Shown piece by piece: positions 11,662 to 34,739 of a stretch of DNA of 64,000 bases. The stretch spans positions 408-64,407 of the forward strand of contig CAKNJL010000004.1 of assembly GCA_930982035.1 (NCBI GenBank), in the 5' to 3' direction. The DNA comes from an uncultured Clostridium sp. (lineage in GTDB: Bacteria > Bacillota > Clostridia > TANB77 > CAG-508). The notes below the pieces were generated by a model, which ran no database searches, was not told the DNA's origin, and worked only from the letters and a program-made list of their open reading frames with translations. Made by a program: the position numbers and the translations under genes. Numbering within the stretch: the first letter of the stretch is position 1; each line of letters begins with the position of its first letter.

Positions 11662-11792
11662 AGTTATTTTTTAAAAGATATTGACAAAGGCAGGTTACAA
11701 TTATAAAATAATATTGTAATCTGTTTTTTATATTATAGTAAATATAAAAAATAATATTGCACAAAAAATTGCAAGCAATTAATGGAGAAAAA

Positions 11793-12779
11793 ATGAAAGA
11801 GAAAGTAGATATATTATTAGCGACATATAAACCAAACATTACATATTTAAAAGAACAAATAGAAAGTGTATTAAATCAAACATACAAAAACATAAAATTA
11901 TACATATCTGATGATTGCTCAAATGAGCAAGAAGTAATAGAAATACTAGAAGATTATGCAAAAAGCGATGACAGAATAGAACTATATGTTCAAGAGAAAA
12001 ATTTAGGATATATAAAAAATTTTGAATTTCTATTAACAAAGTCGACAGCAAAATATGTAGCATTTTGTGACCAAGACGATATTTGGTATCCAAATAAAAT
12101 AGAAAAATCTTTAAATACATTAATAGAGAAAAATGTTGATTTGATATATTGCAATTCTAAACATATAAATGAAAATGATGAAATTATAAATTTAAATTAT
12201 TTTAAACATAAAAATATGCCTTTGGTAAAAGGTAAAAACAACATTTTAACAATATCAAGATACTTAGGATTAGGTTGCTCTCAAATTTTCACATCAGAAG
12301 TTAGACAAAAAATGTTACCATATAAAGAATCTGTAATGGCACATGATTGGCTTGCAAGTTTTATAGCAAGTGAAGCAAAAGGCGTAGACTATATTGAGGA
12401 ACCACTTTTTTCATACAGATTACATACAAGTAATGTTTTCGGCGGGAGAAGTTTAAATCAAAACATTAGTAGATGGAAACAAGAACATGGGAAATCTTAT
12501 CAAAGTTATTTGCAATATAGAAATGAAAAAGTAATAGATAAAGCATATTTAAACGGAGTAAAAATGTGCTTAGAATATGCAAGAGATGAGAACAATAAAA
12601 AAGCAATTCAACGAATTATTCAATATTATGAAAAATTAAAACAATCCAAGTTTATAAATTTACACCTCATAAGTTATATAAATTTCCTAAGTGGAAGAAA
12701 CATGTTTAAAAAAATGGTGAAGGAAATAATTATTTTTCATTTTCCAATATTAGGATATATGAGGTTTGTATTACAATAA
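11793..12779 (+). CDS. Family-2 glycosyltransferase (rhamnosyltransferase-like)
   Basis: DILLATY...SVLNQTY..ISDDCS and DQDDIW motifs. ATG at 11793 follows ggag. Paralog of 19100..20092. Confidence 0.8.
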   Translation: MKEKVDILLATYKPNITYLKEQIESVLNQTYKNIKLYISDDCSNEQEVIEILEDYAKSDDRIELYVQEKNLGYIKNFEFLLTKSTAKYVAFCDQDDIWYPNKIEKSLNTLIEKNVDLIYCNSKHINENDEIINLNYFKHKNMPLVKGKNNILTISRYLGLGCSQIFTSEVRQKMLPYKESVMAHDWLASFIASEAKGVDYIEEPLFSYRLHTSNVFGGRSLNQNISRWKQEHGKSYQSYLQYRNEKVIDKAYLNGVKMCLEYARDENNKKAIQRIIQYYEKLKQSKFINLHLISYINFLSGRNMFKKMVKEIIIFHFPILGYMRFVLQ

Positions 12780-12804
12780 TAATATATATTAAGGGGGGGA
12801 AAGT

Positions 12805-15369
12805 ATGAAAATAAAAAAAGGATTTATTTTTATAACATTAATATTTTTTGTTTTACTATTTGGACTTAGTATACCAAGTGTTGCTACTCCGAATGTAATT
12901 TTGCATGTTGATTATCCTAGCCAAGAAAATATCCAGCAAGATAAATTATATATAGAAGGTTGGTTCTTAACAGATAACAATGATACAAAATTAGAGATAT
13001 TATTTGATGGAAAGGACAGAACAAAAGAAATAAACAGAAGTGAGAGAGAGGATGTCTTGAAAGCAGAACCTAGTTTTGATAGAAACATAAATCAAAAACC
13101 AGGTTTTATTGGAACATTAGATTTGTCAAATGAGAAAGATGGAACACATACTCTGACAATTAATGTTGTAAATAATGATATAATACTAGCAACGCAAACA
13201 AAGACAATCTTTTTATCAAAGTATAAATCTGTATTACATGTAGATTATCCAACTAAAGATATAAAAGGAACGAATTTATATATAGAAGGATGGGGAATAT
13301 CAGATAGTAGTAATTTTGATATACAAGTATCAATAGATAACCACGAAATAACTGAAGGAATAAAAAGAGTAGAAAGACAAGATGTTTTAAATGCATACAA
13401 AGAATATAATAATGATATTAACAAAACGCCAGGCTTTGAAGGGAATATTGATATTTCATCTTTAATTGATGGAAGACATACTGTAACTTTTAAAATTATT
13501 AATACAATTACAAAAGAAACAATGCAAGAACAAAAAAGAGAATTTTATGTATCAAAATATAACACATTATTGCATGTGGATTATCCAAGAAACGGAGAAT
13601 CTGTTGATGAAATTTATATGGAAGGTTGGGTAATGTCTGAAAATCCTAATCTAGAAGTTAAAATTAGTATAGATGATATAGATTATAGTAATCAAATTCA
13701 AAGAGTAGAAAGAGAAGATGTTTTAAAAGCAGTAGAAGGCTATGGTTCTAGTGATACAAATAAATTACCAGGATTTGAAGGGATTATAGATTCTTCTAAT
13801 CTAAGTTATGGTAACCATACTGTTAAAATTGATATATATATGCCAGATACTAATGAAACAGCTATAACTGAGATACGTAATATAACACTAAGACCGAAAG
13901 AAACTTTATTAAATGTAGATTATCCAAAAATAAACGGAAATGTAAATTCGGACTTATATGTTGAAGGTTGGGTTATGTCAGAAGAAACAGATATACAAGT
14001 AAGGGTAAAAGTAAATGAAAAAGATTATACAAGCAATATAGAAAGAGTAGAAAGAACTGATGTGTGGAATGCTATAAAAGACTATGGAGGAAAAGAAAAT
14101 AATTTATTACCAGGATTTATAGGAACTTTAGATCTTTCTGATTTAAAAGATGGACAAAACACAGTTAGAATAGAGATACTTTCTAAAGAAGGATTTTTAA
14201 TAACACAAGATGTAAGAAATATATATTTGACAAAATATAAATCAACTTTGTACATGGATTATCCAAAACCAAATCAAAATTATAGAGATACATTATATAT
14301 AGAGGGTTGGTATTTATCTGAAACACCTGATAAGTATGTGAAAATATATATAGATAGTTGGGATGTAACAAATCAGGTTAGTTTTGTTGAGCGTAATGAT
14401 GTTTTAAATTCTGTTAGTGGTTATGGAACAAAAGAAGCAAATCCAACACCAGGAATAATAGGATATATAGATATTTCTAACATACCTGCACAGTATAATT
14501 ATTATTATGATTTAGATATAAAAGTTATGAATTCTGTTACAGATGAAATTATAGCAAGAGAAACAATGAAAATAGCAATAAATCAAATACCTTATGAAAG
14601 TGGATATTATGGATATAGTGGATTAGCGGCTTTAGGTGATGGAAGGGGTAGTGATTTATACTATTACAAAATAGGTAATGGACCAAATGTATTTTTTGCA
14701 ACATTTTCTGTTCATGGATTTGAGGATTTATGGAATAATGACGGAACGGAGTTAACATTAATTGCAGAAGATTTAAAAAACCATTTGTTAAAAATGCAAG
14801 ATCAAGCTTTATCAGATAAGTGGACTATTTATATTATACCAGAGGTAAATCCAGATGGTAGAAAATATGGATATACAAATAATGGACCAGGAAGGACAAC
14901 TTTATATAGTTGGGCACCAAACAATAAAGGAATTGATTTAAATCGTTCTTGGCAAGTGGGAAGTTATAGACGTTATACAGATAATAGAAATTATAATGGA
15001 ACAGAAGGTTTTCAAGCGTATGAAGCAAGATTTTTAAGAGATTTCTTATATGCTAATAGATCAAAGACAGGACAAACAGTGTTAGTTGATTTACATGGAT
15101 GGACGCAACAATTAATAGGAGATCCAAGTATTTGTAGTTATTATAAAGCACAATTTCCAGAAAATAGTAGCAGAACTGTAGGACAATATGGAGATGGATA
15201 TTTAATTAACTGGGCAAGAAATAATTTAGGTTCATCAAACTATTCAGCAAAAGCAGCATTAATAGAATTACCAAGTGCAGGAATAAATGGTCATAATTCT
15301 GTTATACAAAATGGGTTCCCAACAAGATATATTAATGCAACATTAAATATGTTAAGAAATATTGTATGA
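12805..15369 (+). CDS. Secreted cell-wall hydrolase: signal peptide, 5 copies of an unassigned ~112-aa repeat module, C-terminal M14 zinc carboxypeptidase-like domain
   Basis: N-terminal hydrophobic signal. Repeats span nt ~12895-14580 (LHVDYP...LYIEGW...VER.DVLNA...PGF.G.ID.S.L.DG.HT). The M14 domain has HGFE (HxxE), NPDG, DLNRSW and DLHGW. Confidence 0.8.
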   Translation: MKIKKGFIFITLIFFVLLFGLSIPSVATPNVILHVDYPSQENIQQDKLYIEGWFLTDNNDTKLEILFDGKDRTKEINRSEREDVLKAEPSFDRNINQKPGFIGTLDLSNEKDGTHTLTINVVNNDIILATQTKTIFLSKYKSVLHVDYPTKDIKGTNLYIEGWGISDSSNFDIQVSIDNHEITEGIKRVERQDVLNAYKEYNNDINKTPGFEGNIDISSLIDGRHTVTFKIINTITKETMQEQKREFYVSKYNTLLHVDYPRNGESVDEIYMEGWVMSENPNLEVKISIDDIDYSNQIQRVEREDVLKAVEGYGSSDTNKLPGFEGIIDSSNLSYGNHTVKIDIYMPDTNETAITEIRNITLRPKETLLNVDYPKINGNVNSDLYVEGWVMSEETDIQVRVKVNEKDYTSNIERVERTDVWNAIKDYGGKENNLLPGFIGTLDLSDLKDGQNTVRIEILSKEGFLITQDVRNIYLTKYKSTLYMDYPKPNQNYRDTLYIEGWYLSETPDKYVKIYIDSWDVTNQVSFVERNDVLNSVSGYGTKEANPTPGIIGYIDISNIPAQYNYYYDLDIKVMNSVTDEIIARETMKIAINQIPYESGYYGYSGLAALGDGRGSDLYYYKIGNGPNVFFATFSVHGFEDLWNNDGTELTLIAEDLKNHLLKMQDQALSDKWTIYIIPEVNPDGRKYGYTNNGPGRTTLYSWAPNNKGIDLNRSWQVGSYRRYTDNRNYNGTEGFQAYEARFLRDFLYANRSKTGQTVLVDLHGWTQQLIGDPSICSYYKAQFPENSSRTVGQYGDGYLINWARNNLGSSNYSAKAALIELPSAGINGHNSVIQNGFPTRYINATLNMLRNIV

Positions 15370-15383
15370 AAGGATAGTAGTAA

Positions 15384-16148
15384 ATGACTAAAAGAGTGAA
15401 AACAATAAGTATAATTGTGGTAGTACTTATAATTCTAAGTGTTAGTTTTGTTGTGATAAGAAAAAAAATTTTTCAAACTGATGCTGAAAACAATGAAAAT
15501 AATATAGAGAACAGTTATACAACTATTGATAAAGAAAATGAAATTGCATATAATGAATCAACAGGGGTAAATGAATTAAAAGAAGCTACAGGAGCAACAG
15601 GAGATTCTAATATATATCAAGTGGAAGAAGAATATGATGGAAGAAAAGCATTAGTAATAAAACCGTCTCTTCAATACCAGGTTGTTTTTGCAGGAATGAT
15701 AAAAGAAGATAAACCAGAATTATCTGAGATTGAAGAGATATATAATACTAATATAGTTCAGAGTCAAGGGATATTTGTTAAGAAAGATTCACAGTCTAAA
15801 TTCTTAGAAATGTTAGAAACTTGTTCAAATTCAAGTTATTATTTTGATGACCAGGACATGTTACAAATAAGAGAAGAAATTCAACCTAATGAAAATGATG
15901 AAATACTGAAAAATGTTATAAATAGCGAGAAACAATATGTCATAGATATTGATGGAACGTGTTATATTATAGATCAAATGACAGGTGAAGTTGTAAATTA
16001 TGATTATGAAATCATGAATCCTTATCAGCCATATCAATACTATCAGAATGAAAATAAAATCATCATGATGATAACTGAAAATATTGAGGGAAAATTGCAG
16101 GATGAGGAAATTATAAAAAGTGTAATAGATTTGATGGCACAAATATAG
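15384..16148 (+). CDS. Membrane-anchored hypothetical protein
   Basis: Single N-terminal TM helix followed by an acidic extracytoplasmic region. No recognisable motif. Confidence 0.55.
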   Translation: MTKRVKTISIIVVVLIILSVSFVVIRKKIFQTDAENNENNIENSYTTIDKENEIAYNESTGVNELKEATGATGDSNIYQVEEEYDGRKALVIKPSLQYQVVFAGMIKEDKPELSEIEEIYNTNIVQSQGIFVKKDSQSKFLEMLETCSNSSYYFDDQDMLQIREEIQPNENDEILKNVINSEKQYVIDIDGTCYIIDQMTGEVVNYDYEIMNPYQPYQYYQNENKIIMMITENIEGKLQDEEIIKSVIDLMAQI

Positions 16149-16154
16149 AAAATA

Positions 16155-16190
16155 AAAACTAGAGTAAATATGATTCTCTAGTTTTTTATT
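16155..16190. terminator. Bidirectional terminator between convergent genes
   Basis: aaaactagag / ctctagtttt 10-bp stem with flanking A/T runs. Confidence 0.6.
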
Positions 16191-16275
16191 ATATGAAATA
16201 GCATTTTATTTTAAATAAAGTTACAAATTTTAAATGTTCAAAAAAAGCTTATACCATTTTTTAGAGTTTGTTAAC

Positions 16276-18135
16276 TTAATATTGATATAGAATGTTTTCT
16301 CCAATTTCTGTTATATTTAGTGGAAGAGTTTGATTCATGTAATTTACAATATTTAAATTAGTATTATCTATAATAATCCAATTTATTTTATATTTTTTTC
16401 TTAGAACGTTAAAGTCTTCAATACTAAGGTTTGGAACTGCATTCCTATAGATGTCACGAAGTGATTGAAGTTCCGATAATTCTTCTTGTGAAAGTATTTC
16501 ATACATATACATATCTCTTGACCAAATTATATTTATCTCAGAGCTTAATTGTCTCATGGTAGCACTATGTAAAGGTTCTGGCGGTGCTAGAACAGTAGCA
16601 GGTTCTGTGCTATTTTTTTCAGTTTCCTTATCCAATATATACTGTGTTTGGTCTATAATTGATTGAGGAATCTTATAAAAGTTTTCAGCTATTTCAAATC
16701 CATTGTCTTTTGTATAAACAAATTTCCCCATAAAGATTAGTAGTAATATTTCTATTAATAGAACTAGGGATTTGTATACTTTATTATTTTTTAAATTTAG
16801 TAGTATAACAAAAGAATATATTATTGAAAATTCTAGTGGTAGTAGCCAGAACAATCTCCAAAATACTTCAGTACCAGTAAAATATTGAGTGATATACTTA
16901 GTTAAAAATGGATTATATAATGTAACTAAGTAAATTAAAGGTACTAATACAAAATATCTTCGAGCCATAGAGTTTCCTTTAAGTAAGATTATAATAATGG
17001 AGAAGATATATAAAATAAAGTAATATCCGGTACCAATATAATTTTTAAAAATATCTAATATATTCAAATTCTCATTATATGTAGAACCATGAATGTTTTT
17101 GGCTATTATTAAATATAAAATACCATATATAGCGATTGGTAATCCTGTTAAGAGTAATTTTCCAAAAGTTTTCCAGTTTCTTTGAAATAATGCAATAATG
17201 CCAAATCCTATATAAGCAAAAGGAACTAAGAAAATAGCTGTGTTAGTAAAAAATACTGCTGATAAATTTAATATTAATAAGGCTTTTATATTTCTTTTTT
17301 CGTTATATTTTGATAGACTAATTAAATTTACTAGTATTAATGTAAGTACAATATTTAAAAATATTTCTTTTCCTTGCCACATTCTGCTTAGTAAGATAAT
17401 ACCTCTAAATCTTGATGTGAATCCACTAAATAAAAATAATATAGAGAGTAGTAATACATAAATCATGGCAGTTCTATTTTTATGTAATAATTTTCTTGCT
17501 AAAAGATAATATGCCATATATGAAAATAAAATCATTATAAAAGGTATTATAGTATGACATAATGTTGTTGAGGGGATATTAAAGATTTTAGCAAGAACGG
17601 ATAAACTTAATTCATATCCAGATATCATATATCTAGATAAAAATATCGTGTTTTCACTTCCTAATGAAGGTGCGTGTGTATAGATGGCATCAGAGTTTTG
17701 ATTTTCTTCTACTAGACTAACATAGAAAGCATCATCAGCATTTTCATTAAAAAGCAAACTAGAAACTGTAGCTTGAGTCAAAACCATTAAAATTAATATA
17801 GAAGCGATGACAAAGTCTGTTTTCTTTATGTGCTTTAATTTAGCATAGTTGTGTTTAAAAAATTTTTTTTCTTGCTTTGGTTTACAAATAAAGAAAGAAG
17901 TTATAAAGAGTATACTAATTATAAATATGGTTATATACAAGACAAATTCGAAACTTACATGCAATAAAATTAAAGGAATGTAAATGATTTGTAAAATTGC
18001 AACTGTTGTTAAAAAACCATATAATATAATTGATATATAATTATGGTTTTTTAATATTTTATTTATTATTAATCCTATTCTATAGCTAATAATTACAATT
18101 GTTAAATATAAAAATATAGTTTTCATAAAAAGCAT
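16276..18135 (-). CDS. Large polytopic membrane protein, GT-C-like glycosyltransferase/polymerase candidate
   Basis: More than 12 predicted TM segments. An acidic ENADDAFYV motif sits in the first external loop, as in GT-C enzymes. SD aaggag upstream. Confidence 0.6.
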   Translation of the reverse strand: MLFMKTIFLYLTIVIISYRIGLIINKILKNHNYISIILYGFLTTVAILQIIYIPLILLHVSFEFVLYITIFIISILFITSFFICKPKQEKKFFKHNYAKLKHIKKTDFVIASILILMVLTQATVSSLLFNENADDAFYVSLVEENQNSDAIYTHAPSLGSENTIFLSRYMISGYELSLSVLAKIFNIPSTTLCHTIIPFIMILFSYMAYYLLARKLLHKNRTAMIYVLLLSILFLFSGFTSRFRGIILLSRMWQGKEIFLNIVLTLILVNLISLSKYNEKRNIKALLILNLSAVFFTNTAIFLVPFAYIGFGIIALFQRNWKTFGKLLLTGLPIAIYGILYLIIAKNIHGSTYNENLNILDIFKNYIGTGYYFILYIFSIIIILLKGNSMARRYFVLVPLIYLVTLYNPFLTKYITQYFTGTEVFWRLFWLLPLEFSIIYSFVILLNLKNNKVYKSLVLLIEILLLIFMGKFVYTKDNGFEIAENFYKIPQSIIDQTQYILDKETEKNSTEPATVLAPPEPLHSATMRQLSSEINIIWSRDMYMYEILSQEELSELQSLRDIYRNAVPNLSIEDFNVLRKKYKINWIIIDNTNLNIVNYMNQTLPLNITEIGENILYQY

Positions 18136-18293
18136 TGAATATTTCTCCTTCTTTTCATTTTTATATTGAGATTATAACATAGCATATTATATATAACAAG
18201 TATAAAATTACATTTTTCGATAGATTTAATTGACAAAATATTAAATTAAATATACAATATAACAAAATAGAAAATGAGGAGTGAAAATACAAG

Positions 18294-19088
18294 ATGAGTT
18301 TTATAAAAGAAGTATGGAGAAATAGGAAATTAATATGGCAATTAGGGAAAAATGATTTTAAAAATAGATTTGCAAATACGAGTTTAGGTAGTATATGGGG
18401 GTATTTATCACCATTTATTTTTATGATGATGTATGTAATAGTATTTCAATTTATATTCAAAACACCAGGACCAAGTGCAGATATTCCATATATTGTATGG
18501 TTTATGCCAGGGATGGCTATGTGGATGTGCTTAAATGATGGAATTATTGGTGCTAGCAATGCTATTAGAGGATATAGTTATTTGGTAAAGAAGGTTGTAT
18601 TTCCAGTAGATGTTATACCGATTATTTCAATTATTGCAAATGCCTTTGTTGCTATATTTCTATTTTTATTAGCTACAGTAGTTTGTATTGCATACAAATG
18701 TATACCTAATATTTTAAGCATAATTTATATTATAGTAGCTGCATATGCTTTTTTAATAGCAGTAACAAGATTTACATCTGCTATAGTAACGTTAGTACCA
18801 GATTTTTCTAACTTATTAGGTATTATTATGCAATTGTTTTTCTGGTTAACACCAGTTGTTTGGAACTTATCAATGATAGCAAATAATCCAATGATTTTAC
18901 GAGTTTTAAAATGTATTCCATTTACATACTTGGTAACAGGATTTAGAGATTGCTTTATGGAAGGAAACATTGTAACAGCAGGACATGGAGCATATACGAT
19001 TGTTTTCTGGGTAATTACAATTATAATGTTTGTATGGGGGAATTATATCTTTAAAAAGAATAAAAAAGATTTTGCAGATGTACTATAA
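18294..19088 (+). CDS. ABC-2 type polysaccharide/teichoic-acid export permease (Wzm/TagG-like)
   Basis: 264 aa with 6 TM segments. The N-terminal KNDFKNRFANTSLGSIWGYLSP motif is typical of ABC-2 exporters. Promoter-like TTGACA-N17-TACAAT at 18231-18259. Confidence 0.85.
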   Translation: MSFIKEVWRNRKLIWQLGKNDFKNRFANTSLGSIWGYLSPFIFMMMYVIVFQFIFKTPGPSADIPYIVWFMPGMAMWMCLNDGIIGASNAIRGYSYLVKKVVFPVDVIPIISIIANAFVAIFLFLLATVVCIAYKCIPNILSIIYIIVAAYAFLIAVTRFTSAIVTLVPDFSNLLGIIMQLFFWLTPVVWNLSMIANNPMILRVLKCIPFTYLVTGFRDCFMEGNIVTAGHGAYTIVFWVITIIMFVWGNYIFKKNKKDFADVL

Positions 19089-19099
19089 GGAAGGAAAAA

Positions 19100-20092
19100 A
19101 TGGAAGAAAAAATAGATATATTACTTGCTACATATAATGGTGAAAAATATGTGCAAGAGCAAATAGAAAGTATTTTAAATCAGACATATAAAAATATACA
19201 TCTAATAATATCTGATGATGTATCTACAGATGGGACAAGAGAAATCCTGAAACAATATGAAGAAAATAAAAATATTACTATATATTATCAATCACAAAAT
19301 TTGGGATATATAAAAAATTTTGAATTTTTAATTTCTAAAGTAGAAAATAATATATATATGTTATCAGACCAAGATGATGTATGGCTACCAGAAAAAATTG
19401 AAAAAACATTTTCTGTGTTAAAAAAAGAGAATGCAGATATGGTTTTTAGCGATTTAAAAGTTGTAGATCAAAATTTAAAAGAACTATATGCATCATTTAA
19501 TGATTATATGCTTTTATCAAAAAAAATAAAAAAATATATAAATACAAAATATTTGAATTATTTATATAATTGTGTGACTGGATGTACTATTATGTCTAAG
19601 AAAGCATATATTAAATATATATTGCCAATACCGAACAAGTCGAAATATGTAGCACATGATTATTGGATGAGTTTAATGATTTCTATTAATGGTAAGCTAG
19701 CATATCTTCCAGAACAAACTATTTTATATAGGCAACATGGAGATAATCAGATAGGAACTGAAAAGATATCTCATAAATTTAAAAAATTAGAACAAGTTAG
19801 GAACTTATTCATAGAAGTAAAATTAGGTGTATTTTCAACATATGTAGAAAATAATTCTAAATTTCCCGAAGATATGCAAGAATTAAATAAAAAAGCATTG
19901 AATTATTATGAAATGATCACAAATAAAAAAAATTTTAATTTTAAAGGGTGGCATATATTTCATACCTTGTACAAGCATGAAAGAATATCATATTATATTT
20001 TAAATTTTATTATAATGAATTTACCATTTATAGGTAAAGGGTTATTCAAAGTTAGATATACTATTTTAAAGATTTTAGGGAAAAGAGATTAA
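19100..20092 (+). CDS. Family-2 glycosyltransferase (paralog of 11793..12779)
   Basis: DILLATYNGEKYV..SILNQTY..ISDDVSTD and DQDDVW motifs. Confidence 0.8.
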   Translation: MEEKIDILLATYNGEKYVQEQIESILNQTYKNIHLIISDDVSTDGTREILKQYEENKNITIYYQSQNLGYIKNFEFLISKVENNIYMLSDQDDVWLPEKIEKTFSVLKKENADMVFSDLKVVDQNLKELYASFNDYMLLSKKIKKYINTKYLNYLYNCVTGCTIMSKKAYIKYILPIPNKSKYVAHDYWMSLMISINGKLAYLPEQTILYRQHGDNQIGTEKISHKFKKLEQVRNLFIEVKLGVFSTYVENNSKFPEDMQELNKKALNYYEMITNKKNFNFKGWHIFHTLYKHERISYYILNFIIMNLPFIGKGLFKVRYTILKILGKRD

Positions 20093-20119
20093 GTATATTA
20101 GACAGAAAAATAAGAAAGG

Positions 20120-21583
20120 ATGAGTCTTTCAATGGAAAATAATAATCAAAAAGAAAAGATGAACCAAAATGAATTAGAAGATTTAAATGAAATAGAGAAA
20201 TTAAATGCAGAAAAATTAAAAACATATGAGGATTTAGAGGATAAAAAAGATAATACAGTAGAAGATATAAAAGAAATATCAACAGAAACTGCAATAGAAA
20301 TAACAAATTTATGTAAACAATACAAAATGTTTGCAAGAAAAAAAGATAGAATACTGGAAACATTATTTCCATCACACCCAAGACATGGAGTATTTAGTGC
20401 AATAGAAGATTTTAATTTAGAAGTGAAAAAAGGAGAAGTGCTAGGTGTATTAGGAAAAAATGGAGCAGGAAAATCAACTTTATTGAAAATGATAACAGGA
20501 GTTGTTACGCCTACAGCGGGAGATATAAAAGTTAATGGGAAAATTAGTTCGTTGTTAGAGTTGGGGACAGCGTTTAATCCAGAATTAACAGGAATTGCAA
20601 ATATTTATCAACATGGACAAGTTATGGGATTATCTAACGAAGAAATTAAAGCGAAGGAACAAGAAATTATAGATTTTGCAGATATAGGAGAACATTTATA
20701 TCAACCTGTAAAAACGTATTCTTCTGGTATGTTTGCACGTTTGGCTTTTGCTTGTGCTATTAATGTTGATCCAGATGTCTTAATTGTTGATGAAGTTTTG
20801 TCAGTAGGAGATATGGCGTTTCAATTAAAATGCTTTAAGAAATTTGAGCAATTTAAGAAAAAGGGGAAAACCATACTTTTTGTAACACATAGCATCACAG
20901 ATATTTTAAGAAATTGTACTAGAACAATTATAATTGATTCTGGGAGAAAGATATTCGATGGTGGTGTAAAAGAAGGAGTAGAAAGGTATAAGAAAATTAT
21001 TGTGGGATTAAGTCCTAAAGAAAGCAAAGAAGGTGTTTTATCAGATAAAGAATTATTAGAAAAAAATGCAAATTATAATGCTGATAAAAAGGCAAGTGGA
21101 GATACATGGAAGTCTCACTTTAATGAAAATCCAAATTTAATTACATATGGTAATGGAGTAGCAGAAGTAATTGATTATGGAATGTTTGATGAAAAAGAAA
21201 ACTATATATCTGTCTTAGAAAATGATAGAGAAGTCATATTAAAATCAAAGATTAAATTTCATAAGGATGTTAAAGATCCGATTTTTACAATGACTGTTAA
21301 AGATTTTAAGGGATTGGAGATGTGTGGAACAAATACTTTAATAGAAAAGATTGCAACAGGAGATTATAAAAAAGGAGAAATTGTAGAAGTTTCATTTAAG
21401 CAAAAAATTAATGTCGCACCAGGTAAATACACATTATCTTTTAGTTGTACACATTTTAATCATAGAGGAGAACTAGAAGTATTAGATAGAAAATATGATG
21501 CTTTATTAATAGAAGTATTATCTACAAAGGATACTGTAGGACTTATGAGATTAGACTGTGATATTTCCATTCAAAAAGTATAA
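20120..21583 (+). CDS. Polysaccharide export ABC ATPase (Wzt/TagH-like) with acidic N-terminal extension and C-terminal Wzt_C-like glycan-binding domain
   Basis: Walker A GKNGAGKST, signature YSSGMFARL and Walker B LIVDEVLSVGD. The ~160-aa C-terminal beta-rich domain resembles Wzt C-terminal domains. Confidence 0.85.
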   Translation: MSLSMENNNQKEKMNQNELEDLNEIEKLNAEKLKTYEDLEDKKDNTVEDIKEISTETAIEITNLCKQYKMFARKKDRILETLFPSHPRHGVFSAIEDFNLEVKKGEVLGVLGKNGAGKSTLLKMITGVVTPTAGDIKVNGKISSLLELGTAFNPELTGIANIYQHGQVMGLSNEEIKAKEQEIIDFADIGEHLYQPVKTYSSGMFARLAFACAINVDPDVLIVDEVLSVGDMAFQLKCFKKFEQFKKKGKTILFVTHSITDILRNCTRTIIIDSGRKIFDGGVKEGVERYKKIIVGLSPKESKEGVLSDKELLEKNANYNADKKASGDTWKSHFNENPNLITYGNGVAEVIDYGMFDEKENYISVLENDREVILKSKIKFHKDVKDPIFTMTVKDFKGLEMCGTNTLIEKIATGDYKKGEIVEVSFKQKINVAPGKYTLSFSCTHFNHRGELEVLDRKYDALLIEVLSTKDTVGLMRLDCDISIQKV

Positions 21584-21600
21584 TAGTTAAAGGAGAAAAG

Positions 21601-22530
21601 ATGAATAATAATAGATGTAATAATATAAAAATAGTGACATTTTCAATACTAATATTATTAATGATATTATTTGTAGTAGTCTATATATTTTCTAAAGGAA
21701 ATAAAGAAATAAAAACAACAAAATTAACACAATTAAAAAATAATACAAATAGGCAAATGATGGGGTATATTATAAAAACTGAAAATGATAATACTGTTGT
21801 GATTGATGGGGGGACTAAAGACGATACAGAAAATTTAATACAATGGATAAATCAACAAGGAGGAGAAGTACATTCTTGGTTTATTACACATCCACATATT
21901 GACCACATGGGGGCCTTTTTGAAAATTGTAGAAGAAACAGAAATTCCAATCAATCATATATATGTGACATTAAATGATTTGACTTGGTATGAAAAAAATG
22001 GCCCAACTGAGGCTAATGAAATTAATGAAGTGAAAGAATTTTTTGATGTGATACAAAATTCAAGAATTTCGAGAGCTGTACAAGAAGTCTATCTAGACCA
22101 AAATATAGAAATAGACAATTTGAATTTTGAAATTATAGGAGTCAAAAATCCAGAAATAATAAATAATGGAAACAATAATTCAAGTATGGTAATAAAAATG
22201 CATTCAGATACAAAAACCGTAATATTTTTAGCAGATACGGGAGAAGAGAGTGGTAAAAAATTATTAGAAAATCAAAGTGACAAATTGAAAGCTGATATTG
22301 TACAAATGGCGCATCATGGTCAAAATGGAGTAACAGAAGATGTATATAAAGCAATAAATCCTGAAATATGTTTATGGCCAACACCAGACTGGTTATGGAA
22401 TAATGATTCTGGAGAGGGAGAAGATTCAGGCGATTGGAAAACCAAAATAACTAGGGAATGGATGAATAAATTGAATGTTAAGAAAAATATAATCGGAAAA
22501 GATGGAGATCAAACAATAGAACTTCCATGA
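21601..22530 (+). CDS. Membrane-anchored metallo-beta-lactamase-fold hydrolase
   Basis: N-terminal TM helix; HPHIDHMG (HxHxDH) and a downstream MAHHG motif. Confidence 0.7.
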   Translation: MNNNRCNNIKIVTFSILILLMILFVVVYIFSKGNKEIKTTKLTQLKNNTNRQMMGYIIKTENDNTVVIDGGTKDDTENLIQWINQQGGEVHSWFITHPHIDHMGAFLKIVEETEIPINHIYVTLNDLTWYEKNGPTEANEINEVKEFFDVIQNSRISRAVQEVYLDQNIEIDNLNFEIIGVKNPEIINNGNNNSSMVIKMHSDTKTVIFLADTGEESGKKLLENQSDKLKADIVQMAHHGQNGVTEDVYKAINPEICLWPTPDWLWNNDSGEGEDSGDWKTKITREWMNKLNVKKNIIGKDGDQTIELP

Positions 22531-24395
22531 TAATAGTAAAGGAGAGAAATTCATTGAAATTAAGTACAGAATTTTATCATAATGAAATTCCAATTTCAAA
22601 AGAAAAAAAAGATTTAATTGATAAATATATAAATCAATACGAGATAGAGAATTATGAAGATAAATTTGATGAAAATATAACATGTGAGGAATTGTATTAC
22701 TTAACAGCAACTAGTCAAAACTTGTTAAATTGGTATCCTTTTTCTAGTGAATGCGAAATATTAGAATTGGGAGGAGATATAGGAGAACTTACAGGATTAT
22801 TCTGCCAGAAATGTAAAAAAGTGCTAACAGTTGAACCACAATTGGATTGCGCAAAAGCGATTAGTAAAAGGTATAAAAATAGGGAGAATTTAGAGATTGT
22901 TGCAGGAAATTTGAAAGATATAGACTTAGAAGAGAAATTTGATATTATAACATTTATTGGAAATATTGATAGAATAGAGGAAATAGTAGGAGAAGATATT
23001 TCATTAGAGAAAACAATAGAATATTTGGAAAATTTCTTAAAAGAGAATGGAAGGATATTATTAGCTATTGACAATAAATTTGGATTAAGATATTGGTCAG
23101 GAAATCCAGACAATATTTTAAATAAGAAATTTTCAAGTTTAATAGGATATCATAATGAACCTAAAGTATATGAAACGTATACAAGAAAAAGTTTAGAAAT
23201 TATGTTAAAAAATATGGGGTATTATACAAATTTTTATTATCCATTACCAGATTATAAAATGCCCAATGTTATATTTACAGATAATGGATTACCTCAATAT
23301 AATAGCATAGATAAATATAATCCTTATTGTGCTGGGAAATCTGATTTGATTATAAATGAAATAGATGTATTTAGAGAAATTTTAAAAACAAATCCAGAAA
23401 TGTTTACATTTTTTACAAATTCTTTTTTAATAGAAATCTCAAAAGAAACAATGAATTTGCCATATAAATATATATCATTTAATAATTTAAGAAAAGCAAA
23501 ATACCGATTAATAACTAAAATAGGAGAAGATATTGTTGAAAAGCAAGTAGTCACAGGTGAAGCTAGAGAACATCTAGAACATATGGGAGAAAATATTAAT
23601 TTATTAAAAGAAAATGCTATTAAAAGTTTAGATGAAATGAAGGAAAATCATTTAATTAGTAAATATGTTGATCAAAAATATCTCTTAAACGAAGTACTTA
23701 CACAAGAATTAGAAAAAGGAAATCAAAAAACGTTTGATTATATAATAGAAAAATATAAAGACATATTATTAAAAAACTCGTTTAAAATAGAAAGCTATGA
23801 GGATACTATATTTAAACAATATAATATACCTGTTAAAGATGAAAATTTGATAAAAGATATGAATTTTCTAGAAAATGGCTTGTGGGATATGACTTTTAAA
23901 AATTGTTTCTATATAGAAAATGAATTTTATTTTTTTGATCAAGAATGGAGAGCGAAACATATACCTGTTGAATTTATATTATATAGATCAATAATATATA
24001 CAATATCTTTAAGAAGATATATTAACATAGAAGATTTAATGGAGAAATATCATTTAAAGAAATACAGAGAAATATTTGATGAACTAGATAGTAAACTTCA
24101 AAAAGAAATTAGAGATGACAAGATATGGAAGTTTTATAGTCAGAATAAATATTTTGATATAGAAGCAACAAAACAAGAATTAATTAATGTAAAACAGCGA
24201 GATGAAGCTAAGGAATTAGCAATAAAAAATTTACAGAAAGATAATACATATTTATTAAATGAGAGAGAAAATTTAATAAAAGAGAATGAAGAATTAACAA
24301 ATGAATTGAATTATGTAAAAAAATTGTATGGTGAGAAACTTAGTGTAAAGGTTTATAGGAAAATAAAGAGATTTTGGGGAGGAAAAAATGAATAA
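22527..24395 (+). CDS. Class I SAM-dependent methyltransferase with large middle domain and C-terminal coiled coil (WbdD/WsaE-like chain terminator candidate)
   Basis: Motif I ILELGGDIGELTG. The C-terminal ~80 aa are heptad-rich (ELINVKQRDEAKELAIKNLQKDNTYLLNERENLIKENEELTNELNYVKKL). Overlaps both neighbours by 4-8 nt. Confidence 0.65.
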   Translation: MIIVKERNSLKLSTEFYHNEIPISKEKKDLIDKYINQYEIENYEDKFDENITCEELYYLTATSQNLLNWYPFSSECEILELGGDIGELTGLFCQKCKKVLTVEPQLDCAKAISKRYKNRENLEIVAGNLKDIDLEEKFDIITFIGNIDRIEEIVGEDISLEKTIEYLENFLKENGRILLAIDNKFGLRYWSGNPDNILNKKFSSLIGYHNEPKVYETYTRKSLEIMLKNMGYYTNFYYPLPDYKMPNVIFTDNGLPQYNSIDKYNPYCAGKSDLIINEIDVFREILKTNPEMFTFFTNSFLIEISKETMNLPYKYISFNNLRKAKYRLITKIGEDIVEKQVVTGEAREHLEHMGENINLLKENAIKSLDEMKENHLISKYVDQKYLLNEVLTQELEKGNQKTFDYIIEKYKDILLKNSFKIESYEDTIFKQYNIPVKDENLIKDMNFLENGLWDMTFKNCFYIENEFYFFDQEWRAKHIPVEFILYRSIIYTISLRRYINIEDLMEKYHLKKYREIFDELDSKLQKEIRDDKIWKFYSQNKYFDIEATKQELINVKQRDEAKELAIKNLQKDNTYLLNERENLIKENEELTNELNYVKKLYGEKLSVKVYRKIKRFWGGKNE

Positions 24396-26490
24396 AAAAA
24401 TTAATATTTATAAAACGCAAAAGAAAAAATTGAATATAAATGTTCCAAAAAAGGTAAGTGTAATTATTCCAAATTATAATTATCAAGATTATATAATCGA
24501 AAGAATTGATTCTATTTTAATGCAAACATATCCAATATATGAACTTATTATATTAGATGATTGTTCGACTGATAATAGTGTAGAAGTAATAGAAGAAAAA
24601 ATAAAAACTATACCGAAAGACATAAAAGTAAAATTCATAAAAAACGAAAAAAATAGTGGAGGATGTGTTTTTAAACAATGGAAAAAAGGATTTGATGTTT
24701 CTACAGGGGACTTTATATGGATAGCAGAAGCCGATGATAGTGCTGAAAGTACTTTCGTAGAAGAATTGATAAAACCATTTGATGATGAAGAAGTTATTTT
24801 ATCTTATTGTGAATCTGCAAGAATTGATGGAGAAAATAATTTAATAAGAGAAAAATCAGATGATTTATATGATATGTGTCGAACAGGAGAATGGAATAAT
24901 TCTTATACATGGACAGGGAAAGAAGAAAATATTTACCATTTAAGTGTAACAAATACAATTCTAAATGTGTCTAGTGTTATGTGGAGAAAGAAAGACTATA
25001 CAGAGATTTTGGAAAAAGCAGGAGAATTTAGAGTAGCAGGAGACTGGTATATATATAGCCACATTTTAAAAGATGGAAAAATAAGTTGGAATAGTAAACC
25101 ATTAAATTATTATCGTAAGCATGGAAGCTCTGTTTGCACAGATATTAAATGGGAAATTGAATATAATGAAATATGTAAAATACAAGATGAAATTTCTAGT
25201 TGGTATGACTTACCAGAAGAAGTTAAGAAAAAACAGGAAATGAGAAGAGAATTAATGAGACAATCTATGCCTCCAAAGGATAGTGGAAAAAAGAAAATTG
25301 CATGGGTAATACCACATCCAGGAAAAGGTTCTGGAGGACATAGAACAATTATTCAAAACGTAAATGCATTAATTAACCATGGATATGAATGTGATATTTA
25401 TGTAGAAGAAGATGGAGTATCTACACCACAAACTGTTAAAGATAAGATAAATAGTTGGTATGAAAAATGTGATGCTGGCGTATATGTAGGAATGGAACTA
25501 AAAAAAGATTATGATATAGTATTTGCTACAGGATGGCAAGTTATTAACTTTGTAAGAAGAATGCAAGCAAGAAAAAAAGCTTATTTTATACAAGATTTTG
25601 AACCATGGTTTTTCCCTATGGGAGATCAATATTTAATTATTGAAAATTCTTATAGATATGGTTATAAGCCAGTTACTATAGGAAAATGGTTAGCACATAA
25701 GATGTCAGCAGAATTTAATACACCTGTTCAATATTTTGACTTTGGAGCAGATTTAAACACATATAAAAAACTAACGAATGTGAAAAAAGAAAATGCAATA
25801 TGTTTTGTATATCAACCAGAAAAACCTAGACGTTGTGATTATATAGGATTAAAAGCATTAAAAATTGTAAAAACAATAAGACCAGATATACAAATTTATT
25901 TATATGGTTCTAATGCACCTGCTGGTTTTGAGTTTGAATGCAAGAATTTAAATATTATACCAATTAAAGAATGTAATGAACTATACAATAAATGTATGGT
26001 AGGAATATGTATGAGTTCTTCAAATCCATCAAGGATTCCATTTGAAATGATGGCAGCAGGATTACCAGTAGTTGAACTTTATAGAGAAAATAACCTATAT
26101 GACTTACCAGATGAAGGTGTATTACTTGCAGAGCCTTCTCCAGAAGCAGTTGCAAATGCAATTTTATATTTAGTCGACCATCCAGAAATAAGAGAAAAGA
26201 TGTCTAATTTCGGAACACAATTTATGAAAGATTATCCGCTAGAAAAAGGATTTTCACAATTCTTGAAAGCGGTTGATGATATGATAAATACAGATTATGA
26301 AGAAAAAAATGAAATAAAAAAATTATATAACAAAGAACCATTTAAAGCAAGCGAAGAAACAACAAAAGTAGCAATTGAGGGCATAGAACCAGTTTATATT
26401 GATACACATGGACCAATATATAGATTTTTGAGAAGAGTAAAACGATTACTTAAAGGTTGGTTAATAAAATTGGGGATAAAAAAATCATAA
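24388..26490 (+). CDS. Bifunctional glycosyltransferase (N-terminal GT2 plus C-terminal GT4/WsaF-like rhamnosyltransferase domain)
   Basis: VSVIIPNYN...DDCSTDNS (GT2). The second half has KIAWVIPHPGKGSGGHRTI, typical of WsaF-like enzymes. Confidence 0.7.
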   Translation: MNKKINIYKTQKKKLNINVPKKVSVIIPNYNYQDYIIERIDSILMQTYPIYELIILDDCSTDNSVEVIEEKIKTIPKDIKVKFIKNEKNSGGCVFKQWKKGFDVSTGDFIWIAEADDSAESTFVEELIKPFDDEEVILSYCESARIDGENNLIREKSDDLYDMCRTGEWNNSYTWTGKEENIYHLSVTNTILNVSSVMWRKKDYTEILEKAGEFRVAGDWYIYSHILKDGKISWNSKPLNYYRKHGSSVCTDIKWEIEYNEICKIQDEISSWYDLPEEVKKKQEMRRELMRQSMPPKDSGKKKIAWVIPHPGKGSGGHRTIIQNVNALINHGYECDIYVEEDGVSTPQTVKDKINSWYEKCDAGVYVGMELKKDYDIVFATGWQVINFVRRMQARKKAYFIQDFEPWFFPMGDQYLIIENSYRYGYKPVTIGKWLAHKMSAEFNTPVQYFDFGADLNTYKKLTNVKKENAICFVYQPEKPRRCDYIGLKALKIVKTIRPDIQIYLYGSNAPAGFEFECKNLNIIPIKECNELYNKCMVGICMSSSNPSRIPFEMMAAGLPVVELYRENNLYDLPDEGVLLAEPSPEAVANAILYLVDHPEIREKMSNFGTQFMKDYPLEKGFSQFLKAVDDMINTDYEEKNEIKKLYNKEPFKASEETTKVAIEGIEPVYIDTHGPIYRFLRRVKRLLKGWLIKLGIKKS

Positions 26491-26508
26491 TAAAGGAACG
26501 AAGAAAAA

Positions 26509-28212
26509 ATGAAAGCAATTTTTAGGAAAGTTAAAAAAGTATTTCATGCAATTAAAATCCAAAATATAAAAGCAATTATAAGATATATAAAAAATAATGG
26601 ATTTAAAGGCTTATATACAACATGTATAAATAAAATACGTTTTGGAACTGTTATATTAGATGAATATAAAACATGGATGGCAAATAATGAACCATCTAAA
26701 GAAGAATTGGAAAAGCAACGTAAATATGTATCTTGTCAAAATTTAAAATTTGAACTAATTGTGATGAAAACTACAGAAAGTCTTCAAAATAGTATACAAG
26801 ATCAAACATATTCCAATTTTGTAAAAACAGAAATACAAGATAGATCACTATTAGATATTGTAACAAATTCAACTAGTGATTATCTTGTATTGATTGGAGA
26901 AGACATTGTTTTACCAGAGTTTACACTTTATGAGCTTGTAAAATCAATAGAATATAGAGATTCTATTATGATTTATGCAGATAATGATACTATAATAGAT
27001 GGAGAAAGGAAAAATCCTAATTTTAAACCAGATTTTTCGAAAGATACATTAACTTCTGAAAACTACTTGGGGAATTTTTTGGTAATAAAGACAGACTTTC
27101 TAAAGATACATCAAAATATTTTGCAGAATCTTAATAAAAACATAATTTATGATTTGGCTTTTAGAGTAAGTGAAAAAACAAGGAAAATAGAACATATACA
27201 AAAAGTATTATTCCATAATATAACAACAAATATGGAATATGATACAGAAGATGAAAAAAAGATTATAGCAGATTATCTAAAAAGATGTAATTTACAGTAT
27301 AATGAGATTATAGATGGAAGATATAAAGGACAATATAAAGTTCAATATGCAATTATTGGAAATCCAAAAGTATCCATCATTATACCAAATAAAGACCACA
27401 TAGAAGACCTAGAAAAGGCGATTAGTTCTATACTAGAAAAATCTACTTATAGAAATTATGAAATTGTTATAGTAGAAAATAACAGTGAAAATAAAAGCAC
27501 TTTTGAATATTATGAAAAAATTCAAAAGGAAAATCCAAATAAAATACGTGTTGCAAATTTTAAAATAGATTATTTTAATTATTCAGCATTAGTAAACTTT
27601 GGTGTAGAGCATGCAGAAGGAGAATATGTTATATTGTTAAATAACGATATAGAAATCATTAATGAAGATTGGATTGAACAAATGTTGATGTATGCACAAA
27701 GAAAAGATGTTGGAATATGCGGAGCAAAACTATATTTTCCAGATAGAAGTATACAACATGCAGGAGTTACAATAGGTACAAGAGGATTGGCAGGACATCG
27801 CTTTAGAGAAATTGAAGAAAAAGATTATCATCGTGATGATTATATTAATATTGTACAGAATGTTAGTGCAGTTACAGCTGCTTGTTTTATGGTAAGAAAA
27901 GATTTATACATAGAATTACTGGGATTTGACGAAAAATTAGCAGTTGCTTTTAATGATGTAGATTTTTGTTTAAAAGTTAGAACAGCAAAATACCTAGTTG
28001 TTTATAACCCATATGTTGAAGCATATCATTATGAATCAAAATCTAGAGGACAAGATCAAGAATCAGAAGACAAGCAGAAACGTTTTGCTAAGGAGTATGA
28101 ACTTTTTGTTAAAAGGTGGTCAAAAACAATACAAAAAGGAGATCCATATTATAATAAAAACTACAGACTAGATACAGATTTACCAAAAATTAACTATAAT
28201 AAAATCCATTAG
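26509..28212 (+). CDS. Two-domain family-2 glycosyltransferase
   Basis: C-terminal GT2 core VSIIIPNKD...IVIVENNS...LLNNDIE. The N-terminal half is a degenerate GT-A-like domain. Confidence 0.75.
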   Translation: MKAIFRKVKKVFHAIKIQNIKAIIRYIKNNGFKGLYTTCINKIRFGTVILDEYKTWMANNEPSKEELEKQRKYVSCQNLKFELIVMKTTESLQNSIQDQTYSNFVKTEIQDRSLLDIVTNSTSDYLVLIGEDIVLPEFTLYELVKSIEYRDSIMIYADNDTIIDGERKNPNFKPDFSKDTLTSENYLGNFLVIKTDFLKIHQNILQNLNKNIIYDLAFRVSEKTRKIEHIQKVLFHNITTNMEYDTEDEKKIIADYLKRCNLQYNEIIDGRYKGQYKVQYAIIGNPKVSIIIPNKDHIEDLEKAISSILEKSTYRNYEIVIVENNSENKSTFEYYEKIQKENPNKIRVANFKIDYFNYSALVNFGVEHAEGEYVILLNNDIEIINEDWIEQMLMYAQRKDVGICGAKLYFPDRSIQHAGVTIGTRGLAGHRFREIEEKDYHRDDYINIVQNVSAVTAACFMVRKDLYIELLGFDEKLAVAFNDVDFCLKVRTAKYLVVYNPYVEAYHYESKSRGQDQESEDKQKRFAKEYELFVKRWSKTIQKGDPYYNKNYRLDTDLPKINYNKIH

Positions 28213-28249
28213 TAAGAACTAAAAACATAAGAAGATAAAAGGAGTCAAT

Positions 28250-29809: not shown

Positions 29810-29867
29810 TATGAACATATTATAAGCGATTTAAATATTTGAATATATGTAATAAAAGGAGAAAAAA

Positions 29868-32800: not shown

Positions 32801-32963
32801 TTCTATTTGGGTAGCAAGTTATGGTCAAAATAATGGTGATGTTCCAGATGACATATATCAATATACAGGAAATCATGATATATGGCAATACACATCAACA
32901 GGAACGATTAATGGAATTAGTGGATACGTAGATTTTAATATATGCTATAAAAAATATTTTTAG
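29868..32963 (+). CDS. Secreted GH25 muramidase with 7 copies of the same ~112-aa repeat module
   Basis: Signal/anchor helix. Repeats span nt ~29979-32354. The C-terminal GH25 domain has GIDVSEHQGEINYD, DFMIIRAGYG, and later YDIE and WQYT. Confidence 0.85.
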   Translation: MKNKMKSRIKYYIVMIFVFIALVILNNNISKASNDTEMMLDYPREATVKTEMYVEGWIMSQQETELKVLIGNYDVTDQLVREERQDVINAIKGYGDEIMNPTPGFSGTVDLTQIPDGTYVLSAQAISTKTGKILKKLDKQITVKKYNTNLHIDYPNIEEQKDTFYLEGWVMSEDPGTIIKVFIDGYEVEQQINRTKRRDVINAIKGYGTKSENPFPGIEATIDVSHLTDGPHTVVIRAQSSSTNEIYMECTKNIRVKKYDSQICWDYPKLNQTSNYDLYIEGWVMSEDKNATVQILVDNNDVTENIERTERQDVLNAVNGYGGKDKNVAPGFVGNVNLENYKDGVHTITLKVSSPKTGELIYEKSRRFVLNKYSSDYRFDYPIQNGTVKDNLYIEGWIMSENKNATITLSIDGKDYSSHIQRVERQDVLNAVSGCGGKEANPLPGFYANIDISDVKDGLHKVALQITSPQTNEIIARQEKIIQVHKYESTMIFDYPKQGQNEKNNLYVEGWLMSENEDAKINLYIDGEDYSSYLQRVERQDVWNAIKDYGGKEKNPLPGFKANIDLTNIKDGKHTVTLHIISPLTNETIFKQERTIQVNKYESTMMLDYPKQGEMKKTDLYVEGWLMSEDENAKITLSIDGKDYSTYIERVEREDVWNDIEDYGGKETNPLPGYIANIDLTNIKDGTHTILVQAISPKTNEMLCEIRRTINIKKYDGTIYIETPISNMITTQELYIEGWTMTECPKSTVKILMDNRTIDVEVKRRERADVINAIKDYGGIEENPTPGFYTTVNTKQFTEGRHTLTIQVISNLGEVITEYNKVISIYLNKYWGIDVSEHQGEINYDALVSTQKLDFMIIRAGYGKFPEQIDDYFERNYREATARNIPVGAYLYSYATDVEGAKLEAYNMLSWLNGRSFELPIFYDIEDSTQDGIDMQTKTDMCIAFCDIIKSAGYKVGIYTNKNRLITQIDLDRIPNDYSIWVASYGQNNGDVPDDIYQYTGNHDIWQYTSTGTINGISGYVDFNICYKKYF

Positions 32964-34719: not shown

Positions 34720-34739
34720 AAATATATGAGGAGGAAAAA

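Follow-up and report, generated by a model that had tools for sequence, protein, structure and literature searches.

Why should two different peptidoglycan hydrolases encoded within a single wall polysaccharide locus carry the same tandem repeats in front of their catalytic domains? This question is raised by a stretch of 64,000 nucleotides from an uncultured Clostridium sp. (assembly GCA_930982035.1, contig CAKNJL010000004.1, positions 408 to 64,407; hereafter the window), in which a rhamnose-type, ABC-transporter-dependent wall polysaccharide locus (11757..39249) encloses the genes of a secreted M14 peptidase (12805..15369, plus strand) and, 15 kb downstream of it, of a secreted GH25 muramidase (29868..32963, plus strand). 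An initial annotation of this DNA had noted an unassigned module of ~112 amino acids in both proteins and had placed both genes within a glycan biosynthesis locus, a setting corroborated by our Pfam scans. Here we show that the module is not a new fold but represents a diverged and longer branch of the Big_7 immunoglobulin (Ig)-like family, whose ligand is uncharacterised. Moreover, we propose that the module arrays could serve as address tags which, by multivalent and non-covalent contacts with the wall polysaccharide made by the locus, hold the hydrolases on the cell's own wall. We consider the chances of this proposal evenly balanced; what we infer in it is the ligand of the arrays, their multivalency and their physiological role.

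The M14 protein (854 amino acids by translation of its open reading frame (ORF)) begins with a predicted Sec signal peptide (amino acids 1-27, MKIKKGFIFITLIFFVLLFGLSIPSVA; 12805..12885), the cleavage site of which is placed by an SVA motif, and a hydropathy scan of the protein revealed no hydrophobic segment beyond this signal peptide. The five tandem repeats originally delimited at 12895-14580 are indeed present and can be refined to 12898-14586 (amino acids 32-594), where five modules of 111-114 amino acids follow one another with EGW motifs spaced by 110, 112, 114 and 113 amino acids: R1 (amino acids 32-142; 12898..13230), R2 (143-254; 13231..13566), R3 (255-367; 13567..13905), R4 (368-480; 13906..14244), which is the copy used below for structure modelling, and R5 (481-594; 14245..14586), the most degenerate copy, which lacks the DGxH motif. 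The remainder of the protein (amino acids 595-854; 14587..15366) is a zinc carboxypeptidase-like catalytic domain matching Peptidase_M14 in Pfam (PF00246, E = 1.9e-12, 47.9 bits, cut-off 21.6) and displaying the motifs HGFE (637), NPDG (682), NRSW (713), LHG (763) and ELP (821). In a phmmer search of the PDB, NPDG, NRxW and DLH align with carboxypeptidase A4/B, the closest solved structure being remote (CPA4, E = 1.6e-4). The zinc ligands, the N-R pair and the catalytic Glu characteristic of the M14 family are present, with HxxE and the catalytic Glu as putative assignments by motif.

The GH25 protein (1031 amino acids) likewise starts with a signal sequence, followed by seven tandem modules of the same family (amino acids 37-829; 29976..32354), whose use in this protein the initial annotation had noted, and by a GH25 catalytic domain (amino acids 833-1017; 32364..32918). 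This domain aligns with PF01183 over profile positions 1-180 of 180 (E = 1.9e-28, 100.4 bits) and matches PHROG endolysin families (E = 2.6e-50). Beyond signal peptide and catalytic domain, both proteins consist of modules only, with no other anchor or transmembrane segment, and both arrays are acidic (isoelectric points 4.65 and 4.98). Neither hydrolase was matched as a defence system by PADLOC. Near-identical genes (99.8% each) are present in an uncultured Clostridia metagenome-assembled genome (MAG), CALXJV01, on contigs L001 (M14) and L002 (GH25), and the proteins of the window match this MAG at 95-100% identity, mostly ~99%.

Any two of the 12 window modules are 28-65% identical, and the most distant pairs are significant in BLASTP (M14_R1/GH25_R7, E = 3e-18; M14_R1/M14_R5, E = 4e-20). 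Their alignment agrees with the motif first proposed (DYP, LYIEGW, ERxDV, PGF, DGxHT), with invariant columns at P7, Y18, E20, G21, W22, R50, D52, V53, N66, P69 and G70. A six-frame scan of the window with a hidden Markov model (HMM) of the module confined it to the ORFs of the two hydrolases.

Family assignment and fold of the module

What kind of domain is repeated in these proteins? When the whole proteins and each module were compared with Pfam and NCBIfam, only M14 and GH25 passed the threshold. The view that the module matches none of the known wall-targeting repeats was borne out, as SLH, CWB2, choline-binding, LysM, SH3b, GW, Cpl-7, ChW and DUF5776 gave no match to the M14 protein or to the 12 single modules at E <= 10, and none of these was found in the full-length GH25 protein at E <= 0.01. 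Neither the proteins nor the modules matched a carbohydrate-binding module family of Pfam, and the structural neighbours described below are accessory modules of glycoside hydrolases without proven binding. When the 12-module alignment was run as a sequence profile against the PDB, only chance-level matches were obtained (colicin I receptor, OspA). DUF4819, TcfC, DUF6941, Y_Y_Y and similar families were rejected as background below threshold, of the kind that Ig-like strands commonly produce, DUF6941 reaching at best 26.2 against a cut-off of 27 in the window copies. Big_7 (PF17957) itself scores 18.0 bits against a cut-off of 24.1 in the GH25 protein and has no match in the M14 protein, and only two of the 12 single modules give any match to it (best E = 0.12).

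The family to which the module belongs became apparent from its homologues. A word-indexed search with the module profile yielded just 15 short fragments, and an exhaustive search of 1.84 billion cluster representatives with the module HMM was needed to reveal the family, which comprises 1128 proteins at E <= 1e-3 (249 at E <= 1e-30), each carrying 2-10 module copies. Several of these relatives match Big_7 strongly (scores per protein, ranging from 35 to 206 bits): P0020, an orthologue of the M14 protein with 40% identity, reaches 56 bits, the GH25 protein P0092 35 bits, and P0173, P0184 and P0209 reach 161, 192 and 206 bits, respectively. In these five as well as in P0225, P0254 and P0183, the Big_7 stretches overlap the module matches by 79-87 residues. 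Since the relatives pass Big_7 over the same residues as the module, the module belongs to this known family, which we take to be part of the E-set clan. In agreement with this, NCBI labels P0184 as an 'Ig-like domain-containing protein'.

The module is longer than the domain as modelled in Pfam (~113 amino acids as compared to 70 model positions). Big_7 spans module positions 2 to ~92, and ~83 module residues align to ~65 Big_7 positions, which implies ~18 extra residues that probably fall in a short helical segment of the structure model. A further ~20 C-terminal residues form one more strand. This AlphaFold2 model, computed for module R4 (pLDDT, the predicted local distance difference test, 92.9), is an Ig-like beta-sandwich of eight strands, in which residues 51-56 and 62-65 form two short helices. 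Foldseek comparison with the PDB returned solely accessory modules of the Ig/fibronectin type III (FnIII) type, headed by the Thermotoga petrophila mannanase 6tn6 (E = 2.5e-5, TMq 0.68), in which the matched region is presumably an accessory beta-sandwich, and continuing at E ~1e-3 with GbpA, CbhA Fn3 modules and S-layer domains.

Overall, these results qualify the suggestion of an unassigned, candidate new domain. It holds insofar as the window copies score below every Pfam threshold, including the Big_7 gathering threshold of 24.1 bits, and it fails in that the homologues are strongly Big_7 and the fold is generic; the assignment is carried by transitive homology to bona fide Big_7 members together with the Ig-like fold. 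The family is thus known, albeit without a characterised ligand: in the literature that we found, Big_7 is a generic accessory domain, mostly of chitinases, with no defined ligand.

Across 773 module instances, D5, P7, G21, W22, D37, R50, D52, V53, Y60, G61, G70, F/Y71, G83 and H85 are invariant, giving a family-wide signature of GW...D...RxDV...YG...GF...GxH. A second set, Y6, Y18, E20 and E49, is fixed in 23 of 23 modules of the window lineage and variable in other relatives; of these, Y18 and E20 are predicted to lie on the outer face of strand B, as judged from the alternation of hydrophobic and polar residues. The taxonomic range of the module is known from scattered names (Clostridium cellulovorans, which has it on an S8 peptidase, Clostridium sp. 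and a Bacilli MAG), because the pattern back-translated for a contig scan was narrow and, apart from the source MAG, reached just one other, from rabbit gut.

Partners, genomic setting and divergence of the arrays

To which proteins is the module attached, and where are they encoded? The usual architecture in the family is a signal peptide, 2-9 modules and a C-terminal catalytic domain of about 200-260 amino acids. Partners were determined for the best 150 of the 1128 representatives by local clustering of the non-module parts and a Pfam scan of one member per cluster. Peptidoglycan hydrolase domains are found on about two thirds of these 150: GH25 on 62, an Amidase_3 cluster on 23 (14 of which have an additional N-terminal glucosaminidase-like part) and M14 on 11. 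Six others belong to a Peptidase_C39_2 cluster and five to an S8 subtilase cluster, a few contain ChW, and the partner was left unassigned in 12, besides singletons with RCC1, Big_2/SH3_3 and GDSL.

In the window, the polysaccharide locus starts with a GT2 gene, followed by the M14 gene, a 254-amino acid ORF, a DUF6077 gene on the minus strand, Wzm, GT2 and Wzt with a Wzt_C domain; it continues with a gene of the metallo-beta-lactamase (MBL) fold, a 622-amino acid methyltransferase, a GT2-WsaF fusion, GT2 and DUF2142, and ends with the GH25 gene, two GT2 genes and RmlD, RmlA, RmlC and RmlB. This synteny recurs on contigs L003 (a rabbit-gut MAG), L004, L005, L006, L009 and L011. Co-occurrence with glycan loci, a survey of which had been suggested by the initial annotation, extends to relatives found with the module HMM: eight of nine related module proteins looked up (eight distinct contigs) are encoded in such loci. 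The M14 protein P0021 is found in the order seen in the window (GT2, M14, a 244-amino acid ORF, Wzm, Wzt, methyltransferase, GT2...DUF2142), and the GH25 proteins P0061 and P0092 are, as in the window, preceded by GT2 genes and followed by rmlD-A-C-B. P0044 (C39_2) lies beside a GH25-plus-modules gene, an ABC transporter, glycosyltransferases and DUF2142, P0030 among GT2, YfhO, PMT_2 and GtrA genes, and P0025 (M14) and P0060 (GH25) are adjacent genes of a GLF/rml/DUF2142 locus. P0045 occupies the M14 slot.

In some relatives, the module is exchanged for ChW (PF07538), presumed to be a clostridial wall-binding repeat. On L009, the syntenic M14 gene has ChW repeats in place of most modules, interleaved with those that remain, and in several GH25 proteins ChW triplets replace the modules or alternate with them. 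The pattern of three ChW repeats, one module, three ChW repeats, one module and so forth precedes M14 or GH25 on L009 (1283-3727) and in P0045, P0047, P0053, P0230, P0231 and P0259; it is a regular composite array and not a simple fusion.

As to their evolution, divergence is far quicker in the arrays than in the catalytic domains that they precede. Catalytic domain and array identities amount to 84% and 56% for the M14 orthologue P0018, 81% and 44% for P0019 and 60% and 32% for P0020, and to 94% and 70%, 70% and 49%, and 64% and 40% for the GH25 proteins P0032, P0042 and that encoded on L003, respectively, with copy number varying from 4 to 7. Between L003 and the window, the GH25 gene is the most diverged of the locus (47%, as compared to 59-87% for the biosynthetic genes). 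Among close GH25 orthologues with catalytic domains 90-94% identical, P0022/P0027 have seven modules and P0031/P0032 six, a difference of one module that points to recent copy gain or loss between strains.

Furthermore, the arrays evolve in concert within genomes, such that two enzymes of one genome have arrays more alike than those of orthologues elsewhere. The arrays of P0025 (M14) and its GH25 neighbour P0060 are 59.5% identical and collinear over 684 amino acids, whereas that of P0025 is just 31-37% identical to those of M14 orthologues whose catalytic domains share 50-63%; in P0023, a near-identical orthologue of P0025, the array retains 69% and the catalytic domain 93%. Similarly, the arrays of P0044 (C39_2) and its GH25 neighbour are 45.6% identical, as compared to 32-36% to others. 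The contrast is weaker for the window, where M14 and GH25 arrays are 42.6% identical, as compared to 31% to the M14 orthologue P0020 but to 40% between the GH25 array and that of the GH25 relative P0061. At module positions 5, 6, 18 and 20, genome-specific residues are common to both enzymes of one genome.

Proposed wall anchoring and its alternatives

How could such arrays act? In the proposed mechanism, each module would offer a weak site for the locus-encoded polysaccharide, and several such sites in tandem would add up to a multivalent, non-covalent attachment to the wall of the cell itself. The array would thereby hold the C-terminal catalytic domain, in one case a putative stem-peptide peptidase (M14) and in the other a putative N-acetylmuramidase (GH25), both Sec-secreted, close against its substrate, the peptidoglycan, where it could act in wall remodelling, in the separation of cells or in the release of polymer. 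As the hydrolase genes are inherited along with the glycan genes, we further propose that the arrays co-diversify with the polymer. Synteny, the bias towards hydrolases, arrays that evolve rapidly and in concert within a genome, the substitution by ChW and the lack of any other anchor in the two proteins all strengthen anchoring as a hypothesis, and two known systems discussed below may be regarded as precedents. A more specific form of the proposal, which we hold tentatively and place a little short of even, is that uncultured gut Clostridia and Bacilli anchor proteins to their walls by a lectin-type repeat that had so far escaped recognition, namely the Big_7-like module. Each copy would bind the rhamnose-rich polysaccharide of its locus with a co-evolving specificity, so that several hydrolases of one genome (GH25, M14, C39-like, amidase) would share a genome-specific 'address tag'.

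The closest parallel is EpaU/AtlE (EF2174) of Enterococcus faecalis, a GH25 autolysin whose gene belongs to the variable region of the epa rhamnopolysaccharide locus. Its catalytic domain is conserved, and its C-terminal GW or DUF5776 repeats vary by strain (PMC13343894, PMC12208459). These repeats bind the decorations of the enterococcal polysaccharide antigen, as demonstrated by pull-down with a green fluorescent protein-cell wall binding domain fusion and by analytical ultracentrifugation, and binding is required for lysis (PMC12208459, PMC13343894). Similarly, the hydrolase genes of the window lie inside a rhamnopolysaccharide locus and combine a conserved catalytic domain with an array variable in sequence and copy number. 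However, in EpaU the GH25 domain is N-terminal and the SH3-like GW/DUF5776 repeats are C-terminal, whereas the repeats of the window are N-terminal and Ig-like, and a second enzyme (M14) bears the same array. The second precedent is YccB of Lactococcus lactis, like the GH25 protein of the window a GH25 autolysin with Ig-like domains; YccB alleles correlate with cell wall polysaccharide type and subtype, and its role is left between phage receptor and modifier of this polysaccharide (PMC10675428). By that description the Ig-like part of YccB is a YjdB (COG5492) domain, whereas the window proteins have no above-threshold match to an Ig family.

With regard to the classical wall repeats, ChW, CWB2, SLH, choline-binding, LysM, SH3b and GW are, like the module, tandem non-catalytic repeats on secreted peptidoglycan hydrolases, which differ from it in being short repeats or SH3-like barrels, as opposed to an Ig-like sandwich of ~112 amino acids without sequence match to them. 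M14 peptidases acting on peptidoglycan include those of the Lysinibacillus sphaericus endopeptidase I/MpaA type. Endopeptidase I likewise joins an M14 zinc peptidase to repeats, which are wall-targeting LysM repeats there and Ig-like modules in the window.

Hence, the Ig-like Big_7 fold and family and the genetic principle embodied by EpaU/AtlE and YccB are already known. What would be new is a wall-glycan-binding role for a large Big_7 branch that is N-terminal and common to several hydrolase classes in one locus. If the arrays bind polysaccharide, this would be the first function for a large unnamed branch of the family (1128 clusters at 50% identity, mostly peptidoglycan hydrolases), and the principle of an autolysin addressed to its own wall rhamnopolysaccharide would extend from EpaU/AtlE to uncultured gut Clostridia with a different fold. 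In its lectin-type form, the module would do with an Ig fold what the GW/DUF5776 repeats do in EpaU, and it would offer a means of typing and targeting the wall glycans of unculturable organisms. Modules might then be usable as glycan-specific probes or as lysin targeting domains against gut anaerobes, and module sequence types as metagenomic proxies for wall-glycan serotypes.

Several observations weigh against the address-tag proposal. Tandem arrays of Ig-like domains are often inert stalks, and several family-wide invariants are acidic (D5, D37, D52, D76), so that the invariant Asp residues could form a stalk-stiffening Ca2+ site rather than a sugar site. Relatives pairing the module with SH3_3 or ChW fit a spacer beside a real anchor equally well, and both the rate of array divergence and the likeness within genomes could reflect relaxed constraint combined with gene conversion or en-bloc duplication, which makes these two points supportive and not decisive. 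The single look-up outside a glycan locus is that of a GDSL protein (P0074). Finally, PHROGs contain no module family, an IMG/VR pattern scan and a tblastn search of 50,697 phage genomes found no module relative, and Foldseek against BFVD returned generic Ig folds only. These four checks led us to reject a phage-derived cell-binding domain; the absence of the module from phage endolysins and receptor-binding proteins in them is at the same time mildly unexpected for an address tag, as many genuine wall-binding domains are common to phages and bacteria.

The arrays could instead be passive stalks, in which rigid, possibly Ca2+-stabilised Ig-like beads only space the catalytic domain through thick polysaccharide and retention, if any, is due to the catalytic domain or to other proteins. 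Such a role would be in keeping with the exclusively generic Ig/FnIII linker-type modules found by Foldseek (6tn6, CbhA Fn3, S-layer domains), with the description of Big_7 as a generic accessory domain, with conserved Asp residues suited to a Ca2+ site, with the ChW or SH3_3 partners and with divergence under relaxed constraint, and the finding would then be ordinary. We nevertheless regard it as unlikely, if the most serious of the alternatives, since it would leave a secreted peptidoglycan hydrolase without any wall-retention device and is at odds with the strong bias of the family towards such hydrolases, with the conserved linkage to glycan loci and with the polar or aromatic residues Y18 and E20, which are predicted to face outwards on strand B, are fixed in the 23 window-lineage modules and vary elsewhere.

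A direct interaction with peptidoglycan, in which the modules would recognise the glycan strand or the stem peptide in the manner of LysM or SH3b and without the secondary polymer, appears more doubtful still. The partners are nearly all peptidoglycan hydrolases (GH25, Amidase_3, glucosaminidase, M14), and P0074 shows that module proteins can also be encoded away from glycan loci, both of which would suit such a ligand. However, peptidoglycan is chemically conservative, and the rapid, genome-specific diversification of the arrays is therefore unexpected for it; the tight, conserved position within polysaccharide loci would likewise be left unexplained. The acidity of the arrays is a further point, as most repeats that bind peptidoglycan or teichoic acids are not acidic, and it also argues against binding to anionic teichoic acids.

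Least probable of all, we consider it very unlikely that the arrays bind other proteins or one another, be it in a coat resembling an S-layer or by docking to the ~250-amino acid membrane ORF or to the GT-C-type DUF2142/DUF6077 assembly proteins, and thereby couple the hydrolases to the machinery for polymer export and attachment and not to the completed polymer, because the membrane-anchored ORF, although always found after the M14 gene in related loci, does not accompany the GH25 gene, and because the Foldseek matches to S-layer domains and to GbpA, domains 2-3 of which bind the Vibrio cholerae surface (PMC3257281), are weak (E about 1e-3). As fold neighbours of the module, with faint Pfam GbpA_D3 matches in its relatives, these GbpA domains are only a lead.

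Neighbouring genes and further features of the window

The ORF directly 3' of the M14 gene (15384..16148, plus strand; 254 amino acids) has an N-terminal transmembrane helix and no Pfam or PHROG match, and its AlphaFold2 model (pLDDT 71.5) found no fold match in the PDB. It is rare, with only seven homologous clusters among 5.8 billion proteins, and homologues of 33-44% identity occupy the same position in L004, L009 and L011. It could be a partner, a regulator or an inhibitor of the M14 peptidase.

Further along the locus (20120-24395, plus strand), a Wzt ATPase with a C-terminal Wzt_C carbohydrate-binding domain is followed by the MBL-fold protein and the 622-amino acid methyltransferase-like protein. 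In the O8/O9a O-antigens of E. coli, chain length is controlled by a terminal cap. By analogy, the Wzt_C/MBL/methyltransferase set resembles such a control, here in a Gram-positive-type rhamnan locus. The DUF6077 multi-pass membrane protein (16276-18135, minus strand) is encoded by the sole opposite-strand gene within the locus, and DUF2142 (28250-29809) is missing from the otherwise syntenic locus of L003.

The window as a whole is AT-rich (GC about 23-32%), and the polysaccharide locus is flanked by housekeeping genes (metK, pta, two ackA, ftsZ, miaB and mutS). Directly upstream of it (7840-11661, plus strand), pta precedes a tandem pair of acetate kinase paralogues of 395 and 396 amino acids. 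At 1759-4357 (plus strand), a 636-amino acid protein of the HerA/TrwB/TraG coupling-ATPase type precedes a 232-amino acid ORF without Pfam match, beside an AraC-type regulator; the gene pair may be the remnant of a conjugative or defence element. Two overlapping ORFs at 48227-49739 (minus strand), one of 227 amino acids (MatE) and the other of 289 (Polysacc_synt and MatE), may represent the halves of one Wzx/MurJ-type flippase, split by a frameshift, as a pseudogene or by an assembly error. Finally, the FtsZ homologue (46801-47793, plus strand; Tubulin and FtsZ_C) has just 330 amino acids, which seems short for FtsZ and would accommodate hardly any C-terminal linker or tail; either the start may have been called too far downstream, or the gene may be a second, FtsZ-like paralogue.

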